Below, one piece after another: positions 1,222-8,647 of a stretch of 11,953 bases of DNA. Below the pieces are notes generated by a model that worked only from the letters and a program-made list of their open reading frames with translations, was not told where the DNA came from and did not search any database. The position numbers and the translations under genes are program-made. Positions within the stretch are counted from its first letter, which is position 1. The number at the start of each line of letters is the position of its first letter. Origin of the DNA: a virus (taxonomy: Duplodnaviria > Heunggongvirae > Uroviricota > Caudoviricetes); IMG/VR virus record IMGVR_UViG_2645727563_000006, positions 1 through 11,953 of that record; one strand, 5' to 3'.

Positions 1222-4209
1222 ATGAGCTTAAGCGATCAGGTGGTTATGGCCACCAGCATAGAAACGCTGATCGAGCTGCTAAAGAACCTGCCCGATTACG
1301 GGCGGGTTTCGTATGTGGTGACAGCGAAGGGAGACGAGGTAAAAACGGCGTTTGATATCGTCGATGCCTCAGCTCTTTTGGTATCCAATACTCTGGATGG
1401 GAAAATTAATCCAGACTATCCCCAGGAACTTCAGCCGCGCGATCGGACCCGCGCATCCAGCCTTCTTCAGGTTAACCAGATATCCAAGGATTTGCGTCCT
1501 GCCCAGCTTACCGATTCCGGTTTATCCAGCCATGGTGCGCCAATAATTGGTGAGGACAATGCCGTTGAGTCAGGTAATGGGCGGACCATGGGGATCATTA
1601 AAGCCTATCAGGACGGTAATGCGGATCGGTATCGGGAGTACCTGATTGAACATGCGACCGAATTCGGCATACGGCCTGAAAAGGTTGAATCAATGACGGC
1701 TCCGGTACTGGTGCGCCGCCGGTTAACGAAGGTTGACCGTGTTCAGTTTGCCAAGGACTCAAATATTTCTGATCTCCAGGAAATGGCAGCCAGTGAAAAG
1801 GCTTTTGTTGATGCCGACAGCATAACACCGGCGATGATGGCGTTGTTTAACCCGTCAGAAAGTGGAGATCTGCTTAGCCGCAGTAATGACGCGTTTATTC
1901 GCGGATTCATGACGCAAGTTGGTGCCACACAGGCGGCTGGCCTTGTAACTGAAGATGGGCGACCAACACGGCAACTTGTTGACCGTATACAAAACGCGAT
2001 CTTTGCCAAGGCATATAAGGATGCGCGCCTGGTAAGGATGGTTGCAGAAGAACCTGATCCGGATATGCGTAATGTTCTGACGGCGCTTAATGCGGCAGCC
2101 AATGATTTTGTCCAGATGCAGGCTTTATCAGGAGAAGCGCACAAGCAGGCTGTGACAACTATTGTTGATGGCATTGAGACAGCGGATAGCCTCGATAAAA
2201 AGGCGCTGGCGGCATTGAAAGATGCGGTAGACCTGGTAAGGCAATCGAAGGAGTCAGGCCAGCATATTACCGATGTTATTGCTCAGGGGGATATGTTCAG
2301 CGAAACGGCCCCGGAAGTGAAAGCACTCGCGTTGTTCATCGTCGCGAATAACCGTAGCGCGAAGCGTATGGCCACCGCCTTTAAGTTGATGGCGCAACGT
2401 ATCAATGATGAGTTACAGCACCAGGGCCAGGCGCTCGGGGATATGTTTGGCGGCGGCGATGTGTCGTTACAGGATATCCTTCGCCAGGTGTCTCAGGAAC
2501 TGGAATACGAAGGCATGCAAGGGATATCCGGCGGTCTTTTCGAGTCCGTTTCCGGCGGTAGTTACAACGGTGTTGCTCCGTATACCAGTTTGCTATTACA
2601 TCGGGCATCCGGCATCAAAGACATTATTCATCTGATCAGGCTGCTTTCCCGCACAGATCCCCAGGATGAACAGCTTGTACAAGTGCTTGCGCATTTTGTT
2701 CGAATGCCTGTTGCCGACGTGAAAAAATGGTGCCGATTATTCGGTATCAGCAATTCGTTACTTCGCGGCTTGTTAAATCACGCATCCTCCCTTGGGCGCG
2801 ATGGCTTTGACGAGATAGCGCAGGCGATAAAAAACGGAGATATGCCACCAGCTATTGACTGGTTTTCCATTCGCCCAACCAGGGTGAAAGCATTCCTTAG
2901 CGCGGCGCATTTGGCATCACCATTGGCAGAAATGGTTCAGAGGTTGTCGCTCATATTCACAGACCATACCGCGTTGGGTGATCTGACTCTGGACGAGATG
3001 AAAGAAGCCTCCATTCAGTGGGCCGATCAACAAAATGAGGTTAACTCAGACTTCTTGCCAGCATTCAGGAAGGCCGTTAGTAAAGCTGATGATGCCCGTG
3101 GAATTCTGAAGGCATTTAAGGCATTGCAAAGTCAGGTTAATAAACATGTCGGTGATATCGATGGGGTAACGGCGGAAGGCAGGGATATCCTTAAAGAGCA
3201 CGGCATAACGCCAGAGTTTATTGATGAGATCAGGACTGATATGCAGCGTGAGGTCGTATCGTCCCTGCAAATTGTAGCCAGGGCGTTGGCGGATGCTAAT
3301 CCGAAGAGTGCGGCCATTGTTAACCGGGTTATTGGTGATATTGAAGCATCGGAGGGCATGGGGGCGCTGAAACTCTTCCTTTCGCGAGCGTTTAATCCTA
3401 ACGGCAATATTCTCCCTGGCATTATTGGTGAGGCTAAAAAGTATGTCAGTGAAGAAGAACTTGAGCAGCTTGACCAACTACTTAAGCGATTCTCATACAA
3501 CCCGCAGACACGCTGGCAAATGAATCAGCGAAGTATGGGTTCGGTCCACGAGAAAGTGTTATCTGCCATGAACAGTGCGATCGCAAACTCATCCGTATCT
3601 GAAGAAAAAGCTCTTGAGTGGGCCGACTCTTTTATCACGGAAGAAGTGGAAGAAGCCCGCGCTGGACAGAATGGTGGGATAGACCTGCGCAAGGAACTTG
3701 CTGATATTTATCGCCTGACCGGCGGTAAAATTTCGACCTTATCAAAGGTGGTTCACCACAAGGGAAGGGCATATGCAAATCTTAATGGTGTTGTTGCTGT
3801 CAATTTGAACGATGAAAATGCAAGTGCACTGTGGCACGAGCTGGGTCATCATCTTGAGTACAGTAACCCTGGTTTGTTAGAGAAAGCCCGGTCATTCCTG
3901 AAGGCCAATGTTGAAGGGGATAAGCCATCTTTCGTTAATATCGGTGGGCGTGGCAAGCCTGAATGGTGCTTCAGATCTCGATTGAGTAATATTTATATGG
4001 CGAAGGTATACCCGCCAGTCTCAGTGAGTAACTCCGGGAAAATTCGGCAGAAATCACCGACCATTTCCAAAACGTCAGCAACGGAAGTATTCTCTATGGC
4101 TCTTCAGTTGTATCATGACAAAGAGGCCGCTGCCGCATCACTGATGAATGGTGACGGATTGCTGGAACTGTTATTAGGTGTGGCAAAGGAGCTAAATAAT
4201 GCAGATTAA
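1222..4209 (+). CDS. Large 995-aa protein with a C-terminal HExxH (HELGHH) zincin-like metallopeptidase motif; candidate virion-associated polyvalent or anti-restriction (Dar/Ddr-class) protein
   Basis: Single 2988-nt ORF. WHELGHHLEY motif near residue 870. N-terminal QPRDRTRA is weakly reminiscent of ParB-like GxRRxRA, a low-confidence resemblance. ATG at 1222 has a poorly spaced RBS; an in-frame ATG at 1246 preceded by AGGTGG is an alternative start. Size and neighbourhood resemble the P1 darA-operon large protein (DdrB-like), from memory only. Confidence 0.8.
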   Translation: MSLSDQVVMATSIETLIELLKNLPDYGRVSYVVTAKGDEVKTAFDIVDASALLVSNTLDGKINPDYPQELQPRDRTRASSLLQVNQISKDLRPAQLTDSGLSSHGAPIIGEDNAVESGNGRTMGIIKAYQDGNADRYREYLIEHATEFGIRPEKVESMTAPVLVRRRLTKVDRVQFAKDSNISDLQEMAASEKAFVDADSITPAMMALFNPSESGDLLSRSNDAFIRGFMTQVGATQAAGLVTEDGRPTRQLVDRIQNAIFAKAYKDARLVRMVAEEPDPDMRNVLTALNAAANDFVQMQALSGEAHKQAVTTIVDGIETADSLDKKALAALKDAVDLVRQSKESGQHITDVIAQGDMFSETAPEVKALALFIVANNRSAKRMATAFKLMAQRINDELQHQGQALGDMFGGGDVSLQDILRQVSQELEYEGMQGISGGLFESVSGGSYNGVAPYTSLLLHRASGIKDIIHLIRLLSRTDPQDEQLVQVLAHFVRMPVADVKKWCRLFGISNSLLRGLLNHASSLGRDGFDEIAQAIKNGDMPPAIDWFSIRPTRVKAFLSAAHLASPLAEMVQRLSLIFTDHTALGDLTLDEMKEASIQWADQQNEVNSDFLPAFRKAVSKADDARGILKAFKALQSQVNKHVGDIDGVTAEGRDILKEHGITPEFIDEIRTDMQREVVSSLQIVARALADANPKSAAIVNRVIGDIEASEGMGALKLFLSRAFNPNGNILPGIIGEAKKYVSEEELEQLDQLLKRFSYNPQTRWQMNQRSMGSVHEKVLSAMNSAIANSSVSEEKALEWADSFITEEVEEARAGQNGGIDLRKELADIYRLTGGKISTLSKVVHHKGRAYANLNGVVAVNLNDENASALWHELGHHLEYSNPGLLEKARSFLKANVEGDKPSFVNIGGRGKPEWCFRSRLSNIYMAKVYPPVSVSNSGKIRQKSPTISKTSATEVFSMALQLYHDKEAAAASLMNGDGLLELLLGVAKELNNAD

Positions 4210-4507
4210 AATCGCAGCGCCATTAGGCGGAGATGCCATTATCGAATTTGATGATAATGAAGAAGTTTCCGGGCGTTTAAGCATTATCTCCGGTGACATT
4301 ACCGAGGACATGATCGCTGAAGCCATAGCTGGAGCAAATCCCAATAGCTATATGGGATTCGTTAACACCCTTGATGCTCCCGCAAGTGATGTTCTCCGAA
4401 CGCTGCATCTTTACGCTGGCTGGTTTGTTGATTGGCCAGCAGTAGATGGTGGCGATGAGGACGACGACGATGATTTTGGTGATCATGTAGACCAGATCGT
4501 ATATTGA
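4199..4507 (+). CDS. 102-aa highly acidic protein, translationally coupled to the upstream 995-aa gene; function unknown (candidate DNA-mimic, immunity or partner protein)
   Basis: ATG at 4199 overlaps the upstream stop by 11 nt. The product is rich in Asp/Glu with a C-terminal acidic tract DGGDEDDDDDFGD. Followed directly by a strong terminator. Confidence 0.65.
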   Translation: MQIKIAAPLGGDAIIEFDDNEEVSGRLSIISGDITEDMIAEAIAGANPNSYMGFVNTLDAPASDVLRTLHLYAGWFVDWPAVDGGDEDDDDDFGDHVDQIVY

Positions 4508-4510
4508 AGA

Positions 4511-4539
4511 AATCCCGCCAATCGGCGGGATTTTTTTTT
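4511..4539. terminator. Rho-independent terminator between convergent genes
   Basis: 9-bp GC-rich stem AATCCCGCC / loop AATC / GGCGGGATT followed by a run of nine T on the plus strand; an A-run precedes it, so it may also act on the convergent minus-strand gene. Confidence 0.8.
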
Positions 4540-5500
4540 AATCGCTTTCCACTTCTTCCGTAGTGTTTTCTTGCAGTTCTGTTAATGCAGCACGACACAG
4601 GCTCCGGGCATTGGCTATAGCCACACTTTTGACTTCATCCGTCATCGTGCAGGTAATGTACTGATCGAGTTCTTCAGCGCGGATGATGCTTTTGCCAATC
4701 AGAAACTGTATTTGCCAGAGCAGATCAGCATCCATAATCAGAATTTCTGCCGGGCCTTCAGGACCAGCCGGGAAGGAAACATAAGACTGTTTGCCCAGGC
4801 CGATAACTCGACAACTTGCTTCAAGAATTGCGCGATTGAGGTCTGACTTTGTAACTGATACAGGTTGATTTTCACCTGCGATTACGCCGTTGACATGGAT
4901 GTGGAATGGCATGTAGCTTGAAATTCGCTCTACTTTCCATACGCCAGCAAGCGATCCTTCATGCAGCACAATGGGGGTAACCGCGAGTTTCATCTCACCA
5001 TATAACTGCTGGCAGATAGCTGGATTGCTGAATACATCCAAAGGTTCACACTCAAACAGCGGCGCAATCTGTATGAGGTCCATCATGGTCATACCAGGGG
5101 TACGAGCAGTAATGAATCTGCGCATGCCAGTATCCATTGTGCGCCAGATAGCTACACCATGCTTTTTGCTCACTTCTTCAGTAAAGCCAAGGTGGCACAT
5201 GATGGTTTTTTCGATAGCCAGATCAGAGATAGAAACCTTTTCGCCAGGTACACCATCATTATTGATGGTCACTTCGACACTCTGGCCATTACGCAGGCGG
5301 TATTGAATTGTTTTAGTATTTTGTGCTGTCATAGTCTTTTCTCTGCTTAAAAACTGATGTATTGCGCCTTCAGGTGGGTCAGGAATGTTTTCCCACCAGC
5401 GAAAGCAATATCTCGGGGTGTTCTTTTCGTGAAAAGCGCGTGCCATTGCCAACTTTGGCGTTTTTTTGCGAGTTCGTGCTTTTGTCGGCGTCTTGACCAC
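4538..5500 (-). CDS. Hypothetical protein downstream of ssb, 264-320 aa depending on start; no motif recognised
   Basis: Long minus-strand ORF. The ORF-track start at 5500 is GTG with a Lys/Arg/Thr/Pro-rich 56-codon extension; the first ATG is at 5332-5330 (MTAQNTKTIQYRL...) with a weak purine-rich RBS. Start is ambiguous. Confidence 0.6.
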   Translation of the reverse strand: MVKTPTKARTRKKTPKLAMARAFHEKNTPRYCFRWWENIPDPPEGAIHQFLSREKTMTAQNTKTIQYRLRNGQSVEVTINNDGVPGEKVSISDLAIEKTIMCHLGFTEEVSKKHGVAIWRTMDTGMRRFITARTPGMTMMDLIQIAPLFECEPLDVFSNPAICQQLYGEMKLAVTPIVLHEGSLAGVWKVERISSYMPFHIHVNGVIAGENQPVSVTKSDLNRAILEASCRVIGLGKQSYVSFPAGPEGPAEILIMDADLLWQIQFLIGKSIIRAEELDQYITCTMTDEVKSVAIANARSLCRAALTELQENTTEEVESD

Positions 5501-5534: not shown

Positions 5535-6023
5535 CTAAAACGGAATATCGTCGTCAAAGTCCATTGGAGGTTCGTTATTGGCGTTGCTCTGAGGTTTACC
5601 GCCACCACTGTATTGCTGGTGGTTTTGAGGTTGGTTTGATTGCCCCCAGCCATTTGAGGACTGTGAATCGTCACGGCGAGCGCCGATCATTTGCATGGTG
5701 CCGCCCTGGCTGACGATAATTTCCGTCGTGTAACGTTCTACACCGACGTCATCTGTCCACTTACGGGTTTTAAGTTTCCCTTCGATGTAGACCTGAGAAC
5801 CTTTTCGTAAATACTCACTCGCAATTTCAGCAAGTTTTCCGAACAAAACGACTTTATGCCATTCTGTCTGCTCTTTCTGTTGGCCCGTTTGCTTGTCGCG
5901 CCATGATTCATTCGTTGCGATGCTGAGTCTTCCGACAGCGCCGCCATTTGGTATATACCTGATCTCCGGGTCTTGCCCCAGGGTACCAATCAGGATGACT
6001 TTGTTTACACCGCGTTGTGCCAC
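5535..6023 (-). CDS. ssb: Single-stranded DNA-binding protein
   Basis: Translation [23 protein letters not shown]... has an OB-fold SSB N-terminus, a Gly/Gln/Asn-rich linker and the canonical acidic C-terminal tail [11 protein letters not shown] start at 6023 with AGGT upstream. Confidence 0.95.
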
Positions 6024-6083: not shown

Positions 6084-6102
6084 AACAAGTGATTTGCATT
6101 AT
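6084..6102 (+). promoter_or_regulatory. Candidate late-type promoter element upstream of lyz: AACAAGTGA box plus CATTAT -10-like hexamer
   Basis: AACAAGTGA at 6084-6092 and CATTAT at 6097-6102, about 90 nt upstream of the lyz ATG; shares its 9-mer with the prt upstream region. Confidence 0.3.
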
Positions 6103-6192
6103 CCTGTGCCTTCTAAAGGGATCGAGTCAGTCGGTATTGGCTGTGAATGGGTGTTTGTCCTGGAGCGTAAAAAATTCGCTTATGAGGTCTTT

Positions 6193-6750
6193 ATGAAGGG
6201 AAAAACAGCCGCAGGAGGCGGTGCAATTTGCGCTATCGCGGTGATGATTACCATCGTGATGGGTAATGGCAATGTGCGAACCAACCAGGCTGGGCTTGAG
6301 CTGATTGGTAACGCTGAAGGTTGCCGACGTGATCCATACATGTGCCCGGCAGGGGTATGGACTGACGGGATCGGTAATACACACGGGGTAACGCCGGGTG
6401 TGCGAAAAACAGACCAGCAAATCGCCGCTGATTGGGAAAAGAATATCCTGATCGCTGAACGCTGTATTAATCAGCACTTCCGGGGCAAAGACATGCCCGA
6501 TAATGCCTTCAGTGCAATGACAAGCGCGGCATTCAATATGGGATGCAATAGCTTACGGACCTACTACAGCAAAGCGCGAGGCATGCGAGTAGAAACGTCC
6601 ATCCACAAGTGGGCGCAGAAAGGGGAATGGGTGAATATGTGTAACCATCTCCCTGATTTCGTGAACAGTAACGGCGTCCCCCTGCCCGGGTTAAAGATTC
6701 GCCGTGAAGAAGAACGCCAGCTTTGCCTGACGGGGCTTGTCAATGAATAA
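6193..6750 (+). CDS. lyz: SAR (signal-arrest-release) endolysin, T4-type lysozyme fold, 185 aa; matches the organisation of P1 Lyz
   Basis: ATG at 6193 preceded by GAGG. N-terminal Gly/Ala-rich weakly hydrophobic segment MKGKTAAGGGAICAIAVMITIVMG (SAR domain) carrying Cys13, then Glu42, Cys44 and Cys51 (NAEGCRRDPYMC) at the positions described for P1 Lyz disulfide-isomerisation control. The ORF-track start at 6094 is an upstream extension. Confidence 0.93.
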   Translation: MKGKTAAGGGAICAIAVMITIVMGNGNVRTNQAGLELIGNAEGCRRDPYMCPAGVWTDGIGNTHGVTPGVRKTDQQIAADWEKNILIAERCINQHFRGKDMPDNAFSAMTSAAFNMGCNSLRTYYSKARGMRVETSIHKWAQKGEWVNMCNHLPDFVNSNGVPLPGLKIRREEERQLCLTGLVNE

Positions 6751-6994
6751 ACTCCGGCAGCTCCGCCGACTTTCGACAATGAAGTTATCGCTGGCAGCGA
6801 TAGTTTTCGACTCGATTTTCATGGCGGTATATGTGCTTAATGAAACGTGGCCACTGGAACCGCTATTGTATGCCGGGCTTCGGCTGTGCCTGACTTTTTT
6901 GAGCATGGCTGCGAGATTGATGCAGCAGAAAGAAACCGCTTCAGATTGTCCACGCCGCGCGGTGCGCAAATATATGGCACGCAGGCGAAGATGA
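6743..6994 (+). CDS. Putative small membrane protein (83 aa, two hydrophobic segments, Arg-rich C-terminus) overlapping the lyz stop; candidate lysis-associated protein, doubtful
   Basis: ATG at 6743 overlaps the lyz stop (6748-6750) with GGGG 7 nt upstream. Segments LSLAAIVFDSIFMAVYVL and LLYAGLRLCLTFLSMAARLM; C-terminus RRAVRKYMARRRR. No homology can be asserted. Confidence 0.3.
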   Translation: MNKLRQLRRLSTMKLSLAAIVFDSIFMAVYVLNETWPLEPLLYAGLRLCLTFLSMAARLMQQKETASDCPRRAVRKYMARRRR

Positions 6995-7004
6995 TTTAAC
7001 CATT

Positions 7005-7021
7005 ATTGCTCTAATAAATTT
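7005..7021 (+). promoter_or_regulatory. C1-operator-like 17-mer ATTGCTCTAATAAATTT (17/17 to remembered P1 C1 operator consensus), probable Op51-equivalent upstream of c4-icd-ant
   Basis: Exact match to the recalled consensus; paired with an inverted copy immediately downstream. Confidence 0.6.
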
Positions 7022-7037
7022 GATTTATTAGAGCAAA
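7021..7037 (-). promoter_or_regulatory. Second C1-operator-like 17-mer in inverted orientation (TTTGCTCTAATAAATCA, 14/17), forming a near-palindrome with 7005-7021
   Basis: Reverse complement of 7021-7037 read directly; the two sites together form an AT-rich inverted repeat spanning 7005-7037. Confidence 0.5.
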
Positions 7038-7210
7038 TAACCTACCATCGAACACGGCTCTATTGATCTCATCGTCGTTCAGGCTTATAGTTCCACCGTC
7101 GTAGCAAATTCTGCGACCAGGTTTGACAGCCTGAATACGAATGCGGACAACCGCAGATTTCCGATATTGCGGTATTTTTGTGTCCGTAAACCACGTTACG
7201 CCCGAATTAT

Positions 7211-7287
7211 GGTGGGGCGTGATGGGGAGGCTTCGGCCTGCTGGTTTCATTCGTGCCAGTCTGTCAACCCTGTCACGTCCTGCCACC
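7211..7287 (+). ncRNA. c4: c4-like antisense repressor RNA of the immunity-I module (77 nt)
   Basis: 77-nt segment bounded by complementary ends GGTGG (7211-7215) / CCACC (7283-7287) with an internal AGGC-TTCG-GCCT hairpin. It contains CATTCGT (7248-7254) and CTGTCAA (7261-7267), complementary to ACGAATG (7320-7326, abutting the icd RBS) and TTGACAG (7291-7297) downstream, in the order expected for antisense pairing. Length and position match the P1/P7 c4 RNA; exact ends not verifiable here. Confidence 0.5.
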
Positions 7288-7290
7288 TGT

Positions 7291-7329
7291 TTGACAGCGG
7301 GTCGCAGGTTGTTAAACCTACGAATGAGG
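7291..7329 (+). promoter_or_regulatory. Candidate c4 target sites (b'-like TTGACAG and a'-like ACGAATG) in the icd-ant leader, adjoining the icd Shine-Dalgarno
   Basis: Complementarity to the two c4-internal segments read directly; GAGG at 7326-7329 is the icd RBS. Confidence 0.45.
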
Positions 7330-7337
7330 CCGTAACT

Positions 7338-7559
7338 ATGGTTAATGCCAATCCTTGCGCACGCCCTGAATTTATCTGGCGCTTTTACTCCTGCCAGAAA
7401 CGTCACTATCACTTCGTAATTGCACCGACAGAAGATGAGGCCCGCTCTCAGCTTCCTGACGCTCCCTGCATTTTCTCTGCCCGCTTTTCCACTGATTCGC
7501 GCAACTCTCTCAGTTACTGGTGCCTCCCTGTTAACGCTTCTGCTCAGGAGGGACTATGA
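7338..7559 (+). CDS. icd: Icd-like small protein (73 aa), translationally coupled to ant
   Basis: ATG at 7338 with GAGG upstream; stop TGA overlaps the ant ATG (ATGA at 7556-7559). The ORF-track entry 7167-7559 is an N-terminal extension that would overlap the c4 RNA and is probably not translated. Confidence 0.6.
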   Translation: MVNANPCARPEFIWRFYSCQKRHYHFVIAPTEDEARSQLPDAPCIFSARFSTDSRNSLSYWCLPVNASAQEGL

Positions 7560-8647
7560 GAACGTCATTAGTCACCCGTGAAGAAATGATTGAGGCAATT
7601 GAACAGCACACATCCTGTATCAGTACCAGGGATATACCGGGTGTTATTGCCAACTACTTCATGATCACCAAACAACTTTACCGGAGAAAGGACAAGAACG
7701 CGGTTCACCGTATCCTGCTGTCTGATATCCGCGAATACCTGCTCGAACAGGGGCATCTGAATTACGCAACCGTCGCAGCCGAAGCACGCAAGGAGGCACA
7801 CAGAATGAAAGCAACTAACGTTAAATCAGAAAAAATTCATGCACCTTCAGTTCGGGAATCGGAGCTGGTGGTTGTTCAGAATCAGTCTGATGAAATTCCC
7901 GTTCTGGAATGGCTGGGAGTGCGTGTCGTAACGACCGAAACTCTTGCTAGAGGGTATAGTACCGATGAAGCCAATATTCGTAAAAATTTGTCTCGCAACT
8001 CCGATCGCTTTGAAGAAGGCAAGCATTACTATCTCTTAACCGGTTCAAAGTTAAAGGAATTTAAAAGGCTAGTGACTATTAGTCACTTGGTTAGCAAATA
8101 TACAAGTCAGGTAATTCTCTGGACAGAGCGCGGCGCTGCACGCATGTCTAAGATCGTGGACACAAATGAAGCATGGGCATTCTTTGAAAAACTGGAAGAC
8201 AGCTACTTCCGACAAAAAGAACAGCAACCGGTCTCAATTCCCCAGACGCTTCCAGAAGCTCTGCGCCTGGCTGCCGAGTTGGCAGAACAGAAAATGCAAC
8301 TGGAACAACAGCTGGTGGCCGCAGCCCCTAAAGTCGATTTTGCCGACCGGGTATCAGTGGCCAAGGGGATCCTGATTGGGAATTTTGCAAAGGTTGTTGG
8401 ACTTAAGCAAAACGCGCTGTTTGCCTGGTTACGGGAGAACGGCATCCTGATTGCGTCCGGCGGACGTAAAAATGTACCGTTTCAGCAGTACATAAATGCC
8501 GGGTATTTCACGGTGAAAGAAGTGGTGCTGGATGATGAAGATGGATACCAGATACGGTTGACGCCCCAGCTAACGGGGAAAGGCCAGCAGTGGCTGACGC
8601 GTAAACTGCTCGATGCAGGTTTATTAAAGCCTGTAGCGGCTGAGTGA
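7556..8647 (+). CDS. ant: Antirepressor Ant (Ant1, 363 aa) with nested in-frame Ant2 start at 7805 (280 aa)
   Basis: Central region VTTETLARGYSTDEANIRKNLSRNSDRFEEGKHYYLL resembles the antirepressor N-terminal (ORF6N-type) domain and the C-terminal part resembles the KilA-C/Ant C-terminal domain. A strong internal RBS AAGGAGG precedes ATG 7805, consistent with P1 Ant1/Ant2 dual products. Confidence 0.85.
   Translation: MRTSLVTREEMIEAIEQHTSCISTRDIPGVIANYFMITKQLYRRKDKNAVHRILLSDIREYLLEQGHLNYATVAAEARKEAHRMKATNVKSEKIHAPSVRESELVVVQNQSDEIPVLEWLGVRVVTTETLARGYSTDEANIRKNLSRNSDRFEEGKHYYLLTGSKLKEFKRLVTISHLVSKYTSQVILWTERGAARMSKIVDTNEAWAFFEKLEDSYFRQKEQQPVSIPQTLPEALRLAAELAEQKMQLEQQLVAAAPKVDFADRVSVAKGILIGNFAKVVGLKQNALFAWLRENGILIASGGRKNVPFQQYINAGYFTVKEVVLDDEDGYQIRLTPQLTGKGQQWLTRKLLDAGLLKPVAAE

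Follow-up and report, generated by a model that had tools for sequence, protein, structure and literature searches.

The c4 circuit has been textbook material since 1990, and a further example of it, ordinary in kind, adds nothing in principle. The locus described here raises a more specific question: whether a segment lying between lyz and pro in an 11,953-nucleotide stretch of viral DNA (the window hereafter) holds an intact c4-icd-ant operon of the P1/P7 immI type, and whether such an operon would by itself define the immunity specificity of the element that carries it. As read from the bases, its recognition code differs from the experimentally studied P1 and P7 codes and shares the a segment of P1; since b differs while a is shared, the locus offers a natural test of the idea that a single recognition segment suffices for heteroimmunity. 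Public plasmid records carry no annotation for this RNA, though it is probably key to coexistence and displacement among P1-like elements, and the coexistence of such elements bears on the phage-plasmids that spread resistance genes.

By its matches to sequenced plasmids, the window derives from a P1-like (Punavirus) phage-plasmid, with the E. coli plasmids NZ_CP058684.1 and NZ_CP013030.1 showing 97-98% identity to it across 89-97% of its length. A comparison of flanking genes placed the module between lyz and pro, and not in the canonical immI arrangement (sim/upf-c4-icd-ant-kilA-repL). Genomic position, however, marks the classical immI locus, and neither the RNA family nor the mechanism. 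The window lacks a c1 gene, which is present in the relative NZ_CP013030.1. Elsewhere in the window, a 320-codon open reading frame without a Pfam match (4538-5500, minus strand) occupies a slot bounded on one side by a 995-aa ddrB/ParB-domain protein with a small ORF downstream of it (together 1222-4507) and on the other by ssb (5535-6023). In NZ_CP058684.1 the same slot is taken by the HipA-family toxin YjjJ, and in NZ_CP013030.1 by three other ORFs, one of which encodes a DUF2829 protein; it looks like a variable cargo hot spot.

A c4-type RNA and its surroundings

We compared the region with the curated genomes of P1 (NC_005856) and P7 (NC_050152), in which the operator, promoters, a1, b1, c4, a2, b2, icd and ant all lie at the same relative positions as in the window (Table 1). 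The Rfam model of the C4 antisense RNA (RF01695) matched at 7205-7290 on the plus strand with 69.8 bits against a cut-off of 45 (E = 2.9e-12), over its full length (model positions 1-87 of 87), and the 77 nt of the RNA can be aligned base for base with the misc_RNA annotated as c4 in P1 (48343-48419). In the predicted fold, a 17-bp terminal stem encloses a GGCUUCGGCC tetraloop hairpin and a second hairpin, with the b' segment inside the 9-nt loop of the latter and the a' segment in the unpaired stretch between that hairpin and the terminal stem. The minimum-free-energy and centroid structures agree, and the folding energy of -42.8 kcal/mol (z = -5.7) was equalled by none of 200 shuffled sequences. 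Features of an RNase P substrate are visible as well, namely an acceptor-like stem and an unpaired 3' ACC. Both NZ_CP013030.1 and NZ_CP058684.1 leave this RNA without annotation (the entry under the match is 'none').

Table 1. Features of the c4-icd-ant module and its neighbours, in window coordinates
Feature	Position	Strand	Basis and remarks
lyz	6094-6750		Upstream neighbour of the module
Small ORF	6737-6994		Upstream of the module, with lyz
C1 repressor operator	7005-7037	both	Palindromic, apparently bivalent; ATTGCTCTAATAAATTT at 7005-7021 (+), TTTGCTCTAATAAATCA at 7021-7037 (-)
P2c4 (P51a)-equivalent position	7020-7048	+	TTGATT...TACCAT; P1 alignment only, weak consensus match
P1c4 (P51b)-equivalent promoter	7063-7091	+	TTGATC-17 nt-TATAGT; P1 alignment and consensus scan
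c4-a1b1 leader element	7085-7137	+	Two hairpins, the second with a1 in its loop; RF03163
a1 site	7123-7129	+	TTGACAG; homologous to P1 'putative a1 target site'
b1 site	7137-7144	+	ACGAATGC; homologous to P1 'putative b1 target site'; 7137-7143 pairs with b'
c4 antisense RNA gene	7211-7287	+	77-nt mature form by P1 homology; Rfam, P1 alignment, fold
b' recognition segment	7247-7254	+	UCAUUCGU; loop of second hairpin; variable core 7250-7254
a' recognition segment	7261-7267	+	CUGUCAA (P1 type); unpaired stretch in the fold
a2 target site	7291-7297	+	TTGACAG; icd leader; homologous to P1 'target site a2'
b2 target site	7320-7327	+	ACGAATGA; homologous to P1 'target site b2'
icd	7338-7559	+	73-aa cell-division inhibitor; 82% identical to P1 Icd, gapless
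ant1	7556-8647	+	363-aa antirepressor; 57% identical to P1 Ant1; Pfam ANT/KilAC, ORF6N
pro/prt		opposite	Downstream neighbour of the module

On the plus strand of the window the heptamer TTGACAG begins at 7123 and 7291 only, with its complement CTGTCAA at 7261, within the RNA, and ACGAATG begins at 7137 and 7320 only, with its complement CATTCGT at 7248. The a' segment can form 7 bp with a2 (7261-7267 with 7291-7297), and b' can form 8 bp with b2 (7247-7254, UCAUUCGU, with 7320-7327, ACGAAUGA), extended by a possible G7255.U7319 wobble. The b2 site reaches into the Shine-Dalgarno sequence of icd (GAGG, 7326-7329) and overlaps its first two bases. Upstream of c4, the flanks of a1 widen its complementarity to the RNA to 14 of 16 nt (7118-7133 with 7257-7272), extending into the 3' strand of the terminal stem, and the spacing between a1 and b1 mirrors that between b' and a'. 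Heptamer counts by themselves are within chance expectation (4 matches for each, against 1.5-1.9 expected, with 16-26 of 200 shuffles reaching 4); the feature is real on the strength of two Rfam matches, base-for-base homology to P1 and complete covariation, and not of motif counts.

A preliminary description of this region, made from the bases and their open reading frames, had proposed a c4-type antisense RNA like those of P1 and P7, and this architecture is confirmed by Rfam, by alignment with P1 and P7 and by the covariation described below. Its 77-nt segment with paired ends and an internal tetraloop hairpin was recovered both by folding 7211-7287 and by the Rfam match, and the two segments within it that had been called complementary to 7291-7297 and 7320-7326 are indeed so, the b'/b2 pairing being one base longer than proposed. 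The placing of the second target at the icd ribosome-binding site was likewise borne out. A repetition of both targets upstream of the RNA had also been noted, and holds; the TTGACAG copy lies where it had been put (7123-7129), and the other, given as 7136-7143, has to be moved by one base, with b1 at 7137-7144. The suggested alignment with P1 and P7 immI brought all annotated features into matching relative positions, and the alternative that c4 in P1-like phages lies elsewhere relative to icd was not seen in it.

Downstream of the RNA, icd keeps the same offset from c4 as in P1, and its stop codon and the start of ant share the tetranucleotide ATGA (7556-7559), from which we infer translational coupling of the two genes; icd translation would be the direct target of c4, by analogy with P1. 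An internal ant2 start lies at 7805 (M84), preceded by AAGGAGG, with both the start and its Shine-Dalgarno sequence conserved. Relative to P1 Ant1, the protein keeps the N-terminal ~95 and C-terminal ~135 residues and differs in its central part, where residues 117-200 match ORF6N.

Upstream, the operator site aligns with the P1 operator annotated as Oc4/Op51 and contains a perfect 14-nt inverted repeat (7006-7019 and 7023-7036, 3 nt apart), to which C1 would presumably bind. The two inverted copies here contrast with the single, monovalent Oc4 of P1 and P7, and regulation by C1 may therefore differ in strength. Among the surveyed loci, 87 have a monovalent operator, 14 a palindromic one like this and 36 no such core; in NZ_CP013030.1, modules 2 and 4 have the palindromic form and module 1 the monovalent form. 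The sole promoter-like call within 6950-7400 was 7063-7091, at a position identical to the annotated P1c4 of P1, and the c4-icd-ant transcript is likely to start there, whereas the P2c4-equivalent 7020-7048 was not called by the consensus scan. The C1-controlled operator and promoter that belong to an immI circuit are in this way both recognizable at the level of sequence.

A second Rfam family, RF03163, also matched upstream of c4 and on the same strand, with 57.1 bits against a gathering threshold of 46.7 (E = 1.6e-12, model positions 1-53 of 53). Between a2 and b2, the segment CAGGTTGTTAAACCT (7305-7319) is complementary, G.U pairs included, both to 7118-7133 in the region of the a1 hairpin and to 7289-7298 in that of a2, and the UU within it tolerates both a types. 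The predicted fold of the 259-nt precursor pairs 7118-7133 with 7305-7319. Folded by itself, the icd leader (7288-7350) shows no significant structure (z = -0.7), and we therefore gave no weight to this long-range pairing, nor to a hairpin that would sequester a2.

Covariation of the recognition code among relatives

We scanned IMG/VR for the constant parts of c4 and extracted the variable cores of all sites. The pattern of the first survey fixed the base before the b' core and missed the type found in phage D6; a scan with a relaxed pattern followed, and the counts are lower bounds. In a non-redundant alignment of 45 distinct sequences, b' and b2 were paired in 100% of cells, with 5 of the 8 pairs changed on both sides, and a' and a2 likewise in 100%, where such two-sided changes affected 2 of the 7 pairs. 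Sliding the partner by 1-3 columns lowered the pairing to 32-53% and left almost no double changes. The upstream sites covary as well: b'/b1 pairing held in 100% of cells, with two-sided changes at 5 pairs, and a'/a1 pairing in 99.8%, with such changes at 3 pairs. All four target sites thus covary with c4, and we take these patterns as strong comparative evidence that the a and b pairings are under selection. The internal helices of c4 were paired in 99.9-100% of cells in the same 45 sequences, with scarcely any variation, so that little can be learned from covariation about the internal stems.

In the first scan, a1 and a2 were both the complement of a', and b1 and b2 both the complement of b', in all complete loci but one. 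The relaxed scan yielded at least 14 combinations, drawn from a minimum of 8 b and 2 a types that recombine freely, and among the matches listed all 139 loci with complete flanks had cognate a1, b1, a2 and b2. The sole broken code of the first scan was found on a 4928-bp contig (IMGVR_UViG_2565956613_000015) with c4 near the contig end, in which b1 and b' are of the ACGAA type and b2 of the P1 type, GTTAG. It is either a natural recombinant, which would be expected to be derepressed for ant, or an assembly chimera that joins two modules of the same genome.

Outside the recognition segments proper, position 7119 in the a1 flank covaries with 7271 in c4 across 118 loci (G/C in 78, A/T in 35, G/T in 5 and A/C in none), and both states occur within the same a type. 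These patterns hint at pairing between a1 and c4 within the precursor.

The combination found here, a P1-type a with a b' of AUUCGU, is rare. This exact type was present in 3 of 146 IMG/VR loci among the matches listed, the window itself included, and in none of the 23 isolated phage records with a c4 match. Its 120-nt core from c4 to b2 was recovered at 99% identity or more in 25 of the 575 PLSDB plasmids with a c4 match, from E. coli and mostly E. albertii; the 575 records hold 679 c4 loci in all.

Predicted duplex energies separate cognate from non-cognate pairs. At the b site, cognate duplexes reach -17.5 to -18.0 kcal/mol against -7.4 to -12.8 for non-cognate ones, with the c4 described here predicted at -9.0 to -11.6 kcal/mol on the b2 sites of P1, P7, Ro157c2 and the ACTTG type. 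At the a site, the corresponding values are about -9 for cognate and -4.7 to -6.7 kcal/mol for non-cognate pairs. Its b type is unlike those of P1, P7 and D6 (its own targets being ACGAAUGA), and it is therefore predicted to be orthogonal to all three at the b site. With an a identical to that of P1, the changed b may be enough for full heteroimmunity.

Mode of action and alternative readings

We consider it very probable that the region is an intact c4-icd-ant operon of the P1/P7 immI type, which would act as its counterparts do in those phages. Later papers (PMC8198154, PMC12197685 and PMC5499578) give the mechanism of P1/P7 c4 and its processing by RNase P with reference to Citron & Schuster 1990 and Hartmann et al. 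1995, the last of the three citing Hartmann et al. 1995 for the processing. On this analogy, transcription would proceed from 7063-7091, downstream of the C1 operator, through a1/b1, c4, a2/b2, icd and ant, and the 77-nt c4 would be cut out of the operon transcript, the 5' cut being made in P1 by RNase P. The b' segment in the hairpin loop and the unpaired a' segment would then form duplexes with b2 and a2, both in the icd leader, and icd translation would be blocked because b2 overlaps the icd Shine-Dalgarno sequence. Since ant would depend on icd translation through the ATGA overlap, it would stay silent, such that the antirepressor could not inactivate C1 and lysogeny would be kept. As c4 would act in trans, an incoming module with the same a/b code would also be silenced, and this is the immunity phenotype that we would expect of the locus. 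Work by Biere et al. from 1992 is said to have described Rho-dependent termination in P1 when icd is untranslated, contributing to the silencing of ant.

The position of the module between lyz and pro, together with the presence of up to four modules in relatives, among which redundancy is conceivable, would suit a silent or decaying duplicate whose element draws its immunity from a canonical immI module elsewhere. We find this very improbable, since the operator, promoter, a1/b1, c4, a2/b2, the icd frame and the ant frame with both of its starts are all intact, 25 plasmids from E. coli and E. albertii retain the 120-nt core at 99-100% identity, and all four target sites have followed b' in its changes, a pattern that requires selection for pairing. 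A different kind of doubt concerns the nature of the repressor. The early P1 record X15639 labels c4 as a CDS, and a frame of 64 codons (7141-7335) is open across the region here, so that a small protein, and not an RNA, might be imagined to carry the repression. This reading we regard as scarcely credible: sequence differences cluster in the segments that base-pair and are offset by changes at distant sites, the region fits the Rfam structure model, and c4 is annotated as RNA in the genome records of both P1 and P7. The frame itself was rejected as a protein because it is interrupted by stops in P1 and shifted by a 1-nt indel in P7, as it is in Ro157c2.

The upstream sites invite a further reading, in which c4 acts mainly in cis, with a' and b' contacting a1 and b1 to control folding or processing, or acts on extra host targets, and in which immunity in trans is secondary. 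The sites a1 and b1 covary with c4 as strictly as a2 and b2 do, the a1 flank is complementary to c4 7257-7272 at 14 of 16 positions, the 7119/7271 pair lacks the A/C state, and the a1-b1 spacing mirrors that of b' and a'. Such contacts, however, would add to the trans mechanism and not replace it, as b2 still overlaps the Shine-Dalgarno sequence and covaries fully, and the 7119/7271 signal consists of one column pair in related sequences; we therefore hold a mainly cis-acting c4 to be very unlikely. The reading of an intact operon that represses icd, and by coupling ant, in the manner of P1 and P7 is the one that we retain.

Several immunity modules per element and comparison with known systems

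The preliminary description went on to claim that this locus defines the immunity specificity of the element, which overreaches: the site is non-canonical, and the closest fully sequenced relatives have three or four c4-icd-ant modules that all differ in their recognition codes. With several differently coded modules in its relatives, the locus need not alone define immunity. The 97.7-kb NZ_CP013030.1 has four such modules, with icd at 2509-2730, 29374-29595, 46696-46917 and 73411-73632. The module adjoining kilA, the canonical one, has the code a GA, b GATTG; the one between lyz and pro, identical to the module described here, has a GA, b ACGAA; and the one adjoining dnaB has a GA, b GTACA. 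These three have the P1-type a in common and differ in b alone, and the fourth module, adjoining c1, has a much more divergent c4 with target-like sites of its own. IMG/VR contigs with two to four copies of c4 show the same pattern, four being present on 2703718869_000013. None of 18 co-resident pairs had the same (a, b), and in the one pair that shared b the a segments differed. The pairs are non-independent and type is partly correlated with position, so these numbers are only suggestive of an avoidance of identical codes among co-resident modules. We rejected the idea that specificity type tracks genomic position, as the ACGAA b is found together with the other a type at the canonical site next to kilA, too; the lyz-pro site, for its part, hosts at least 3 types.

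The module is thus best taken to be one among several interchangeable immunity modules and not the only one, and the locus would contribute one specificity to an immunity that is probably set by several modules. Extra modules have been touched upon before: a second c4-icd region is mentioned in passing for a D6-like prophage (PMC6799933), and extra icd-ant homologues are described for pSvP1 (PMC6906374).

A broader reading, which we put forward tentatively and which may well fail, is that P1-like phage-plasmids use a combinatorial RNA address, made of at least 2 a and at least 8 b types, which is recombined over at least four sites and stacked into as many as four orthogonal modules in one genome. 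If so, a resident would be immune to several classes of incoming relatives, and each extra antirepressor would give it a way past the immunity of residents that lack the matching c4. The module in the window would be such an address, a rare one (P1-type a, b' AUUCGU) located at the accessory lyz-pro site, and its a1/b1 copies would pair with c4 in the precursor, as the 7119/7271 covariation may indicate, tuning its release. The codes in the survey are modular, and single elements stack several modules predicted to be orthogonal, which points to an RNA-based immunity arms race. A partial literature search found no description of such a combinatorial system; the extra b types and the multi-module arrangement may already be described.

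The nearest of the studied systems is the immI region of P1 (c4-icd-ant1/2, NC_005856 48140-49731), whose order and spacing from operator to ant are as here. A comparison of recognition segments with P1 and P7, also suggested at the outset, identified a as the P1 type and b as a separate type that is neither that of P1 nor that of P7. The P1 c4 is identical at 73 of 77 nt, all four differences (7250, 7252, 7253 and 7254) fall within b', and the b' core reads UUCGU here and CUAAC in P1, with b1 and b2 altered to match. The a sites (TTGACAG) are identical and the icd/ant overlap is common to both, whereas the flanks differ (simABC and kilA-repL in P1, lyz and pro here), and so does Ant, which is only 57% identical to P1 Ant1 and has a different central ORF6N domain. 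P7, the classical heteroimmune partner of P1, has the same architecture on the same 77-nt scaffold (NC_050152), but its c4 differs at 8 of 77 nt, in the a' core (CU in P7, UC here), the b' core and stem position 7271.

D6 (NC_050154, 1290-1635) has P1-type a sites and the same c4 scaffold, with 97% identity over c4 and a2, and a b type of its own (b' UCGUAAGU, b1/b2 ACTTACG). It differs in having no upstream C1-type operator, a different, Roi-like Ant and repL upstream. Because the D6 b' has also changed at the base before the core, the variable part of b must span 6 nt or more, and types will escape any survey that keeps the flanking A fixed. The accessory modules of NZ_CP013030.1 (E. coli 2012C-4227, 29.2-30.7 kb) and NZ_CP058684.1, at the same lyz-pro position, are 100% identical over the 120-nt core and show no difference within the module itself.

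A more distant parallel is the CI RNA of satellite phage P4, a short immunity RNA that is cut from the leader of the operon under its control, is a substrate of RNase P and pairs with repeated target sites on its own transcript. The P4 RNA is, however, unrelated in sequence and family, and acts through premature transcription termination and not through occlusion of a ribosome-binding site.
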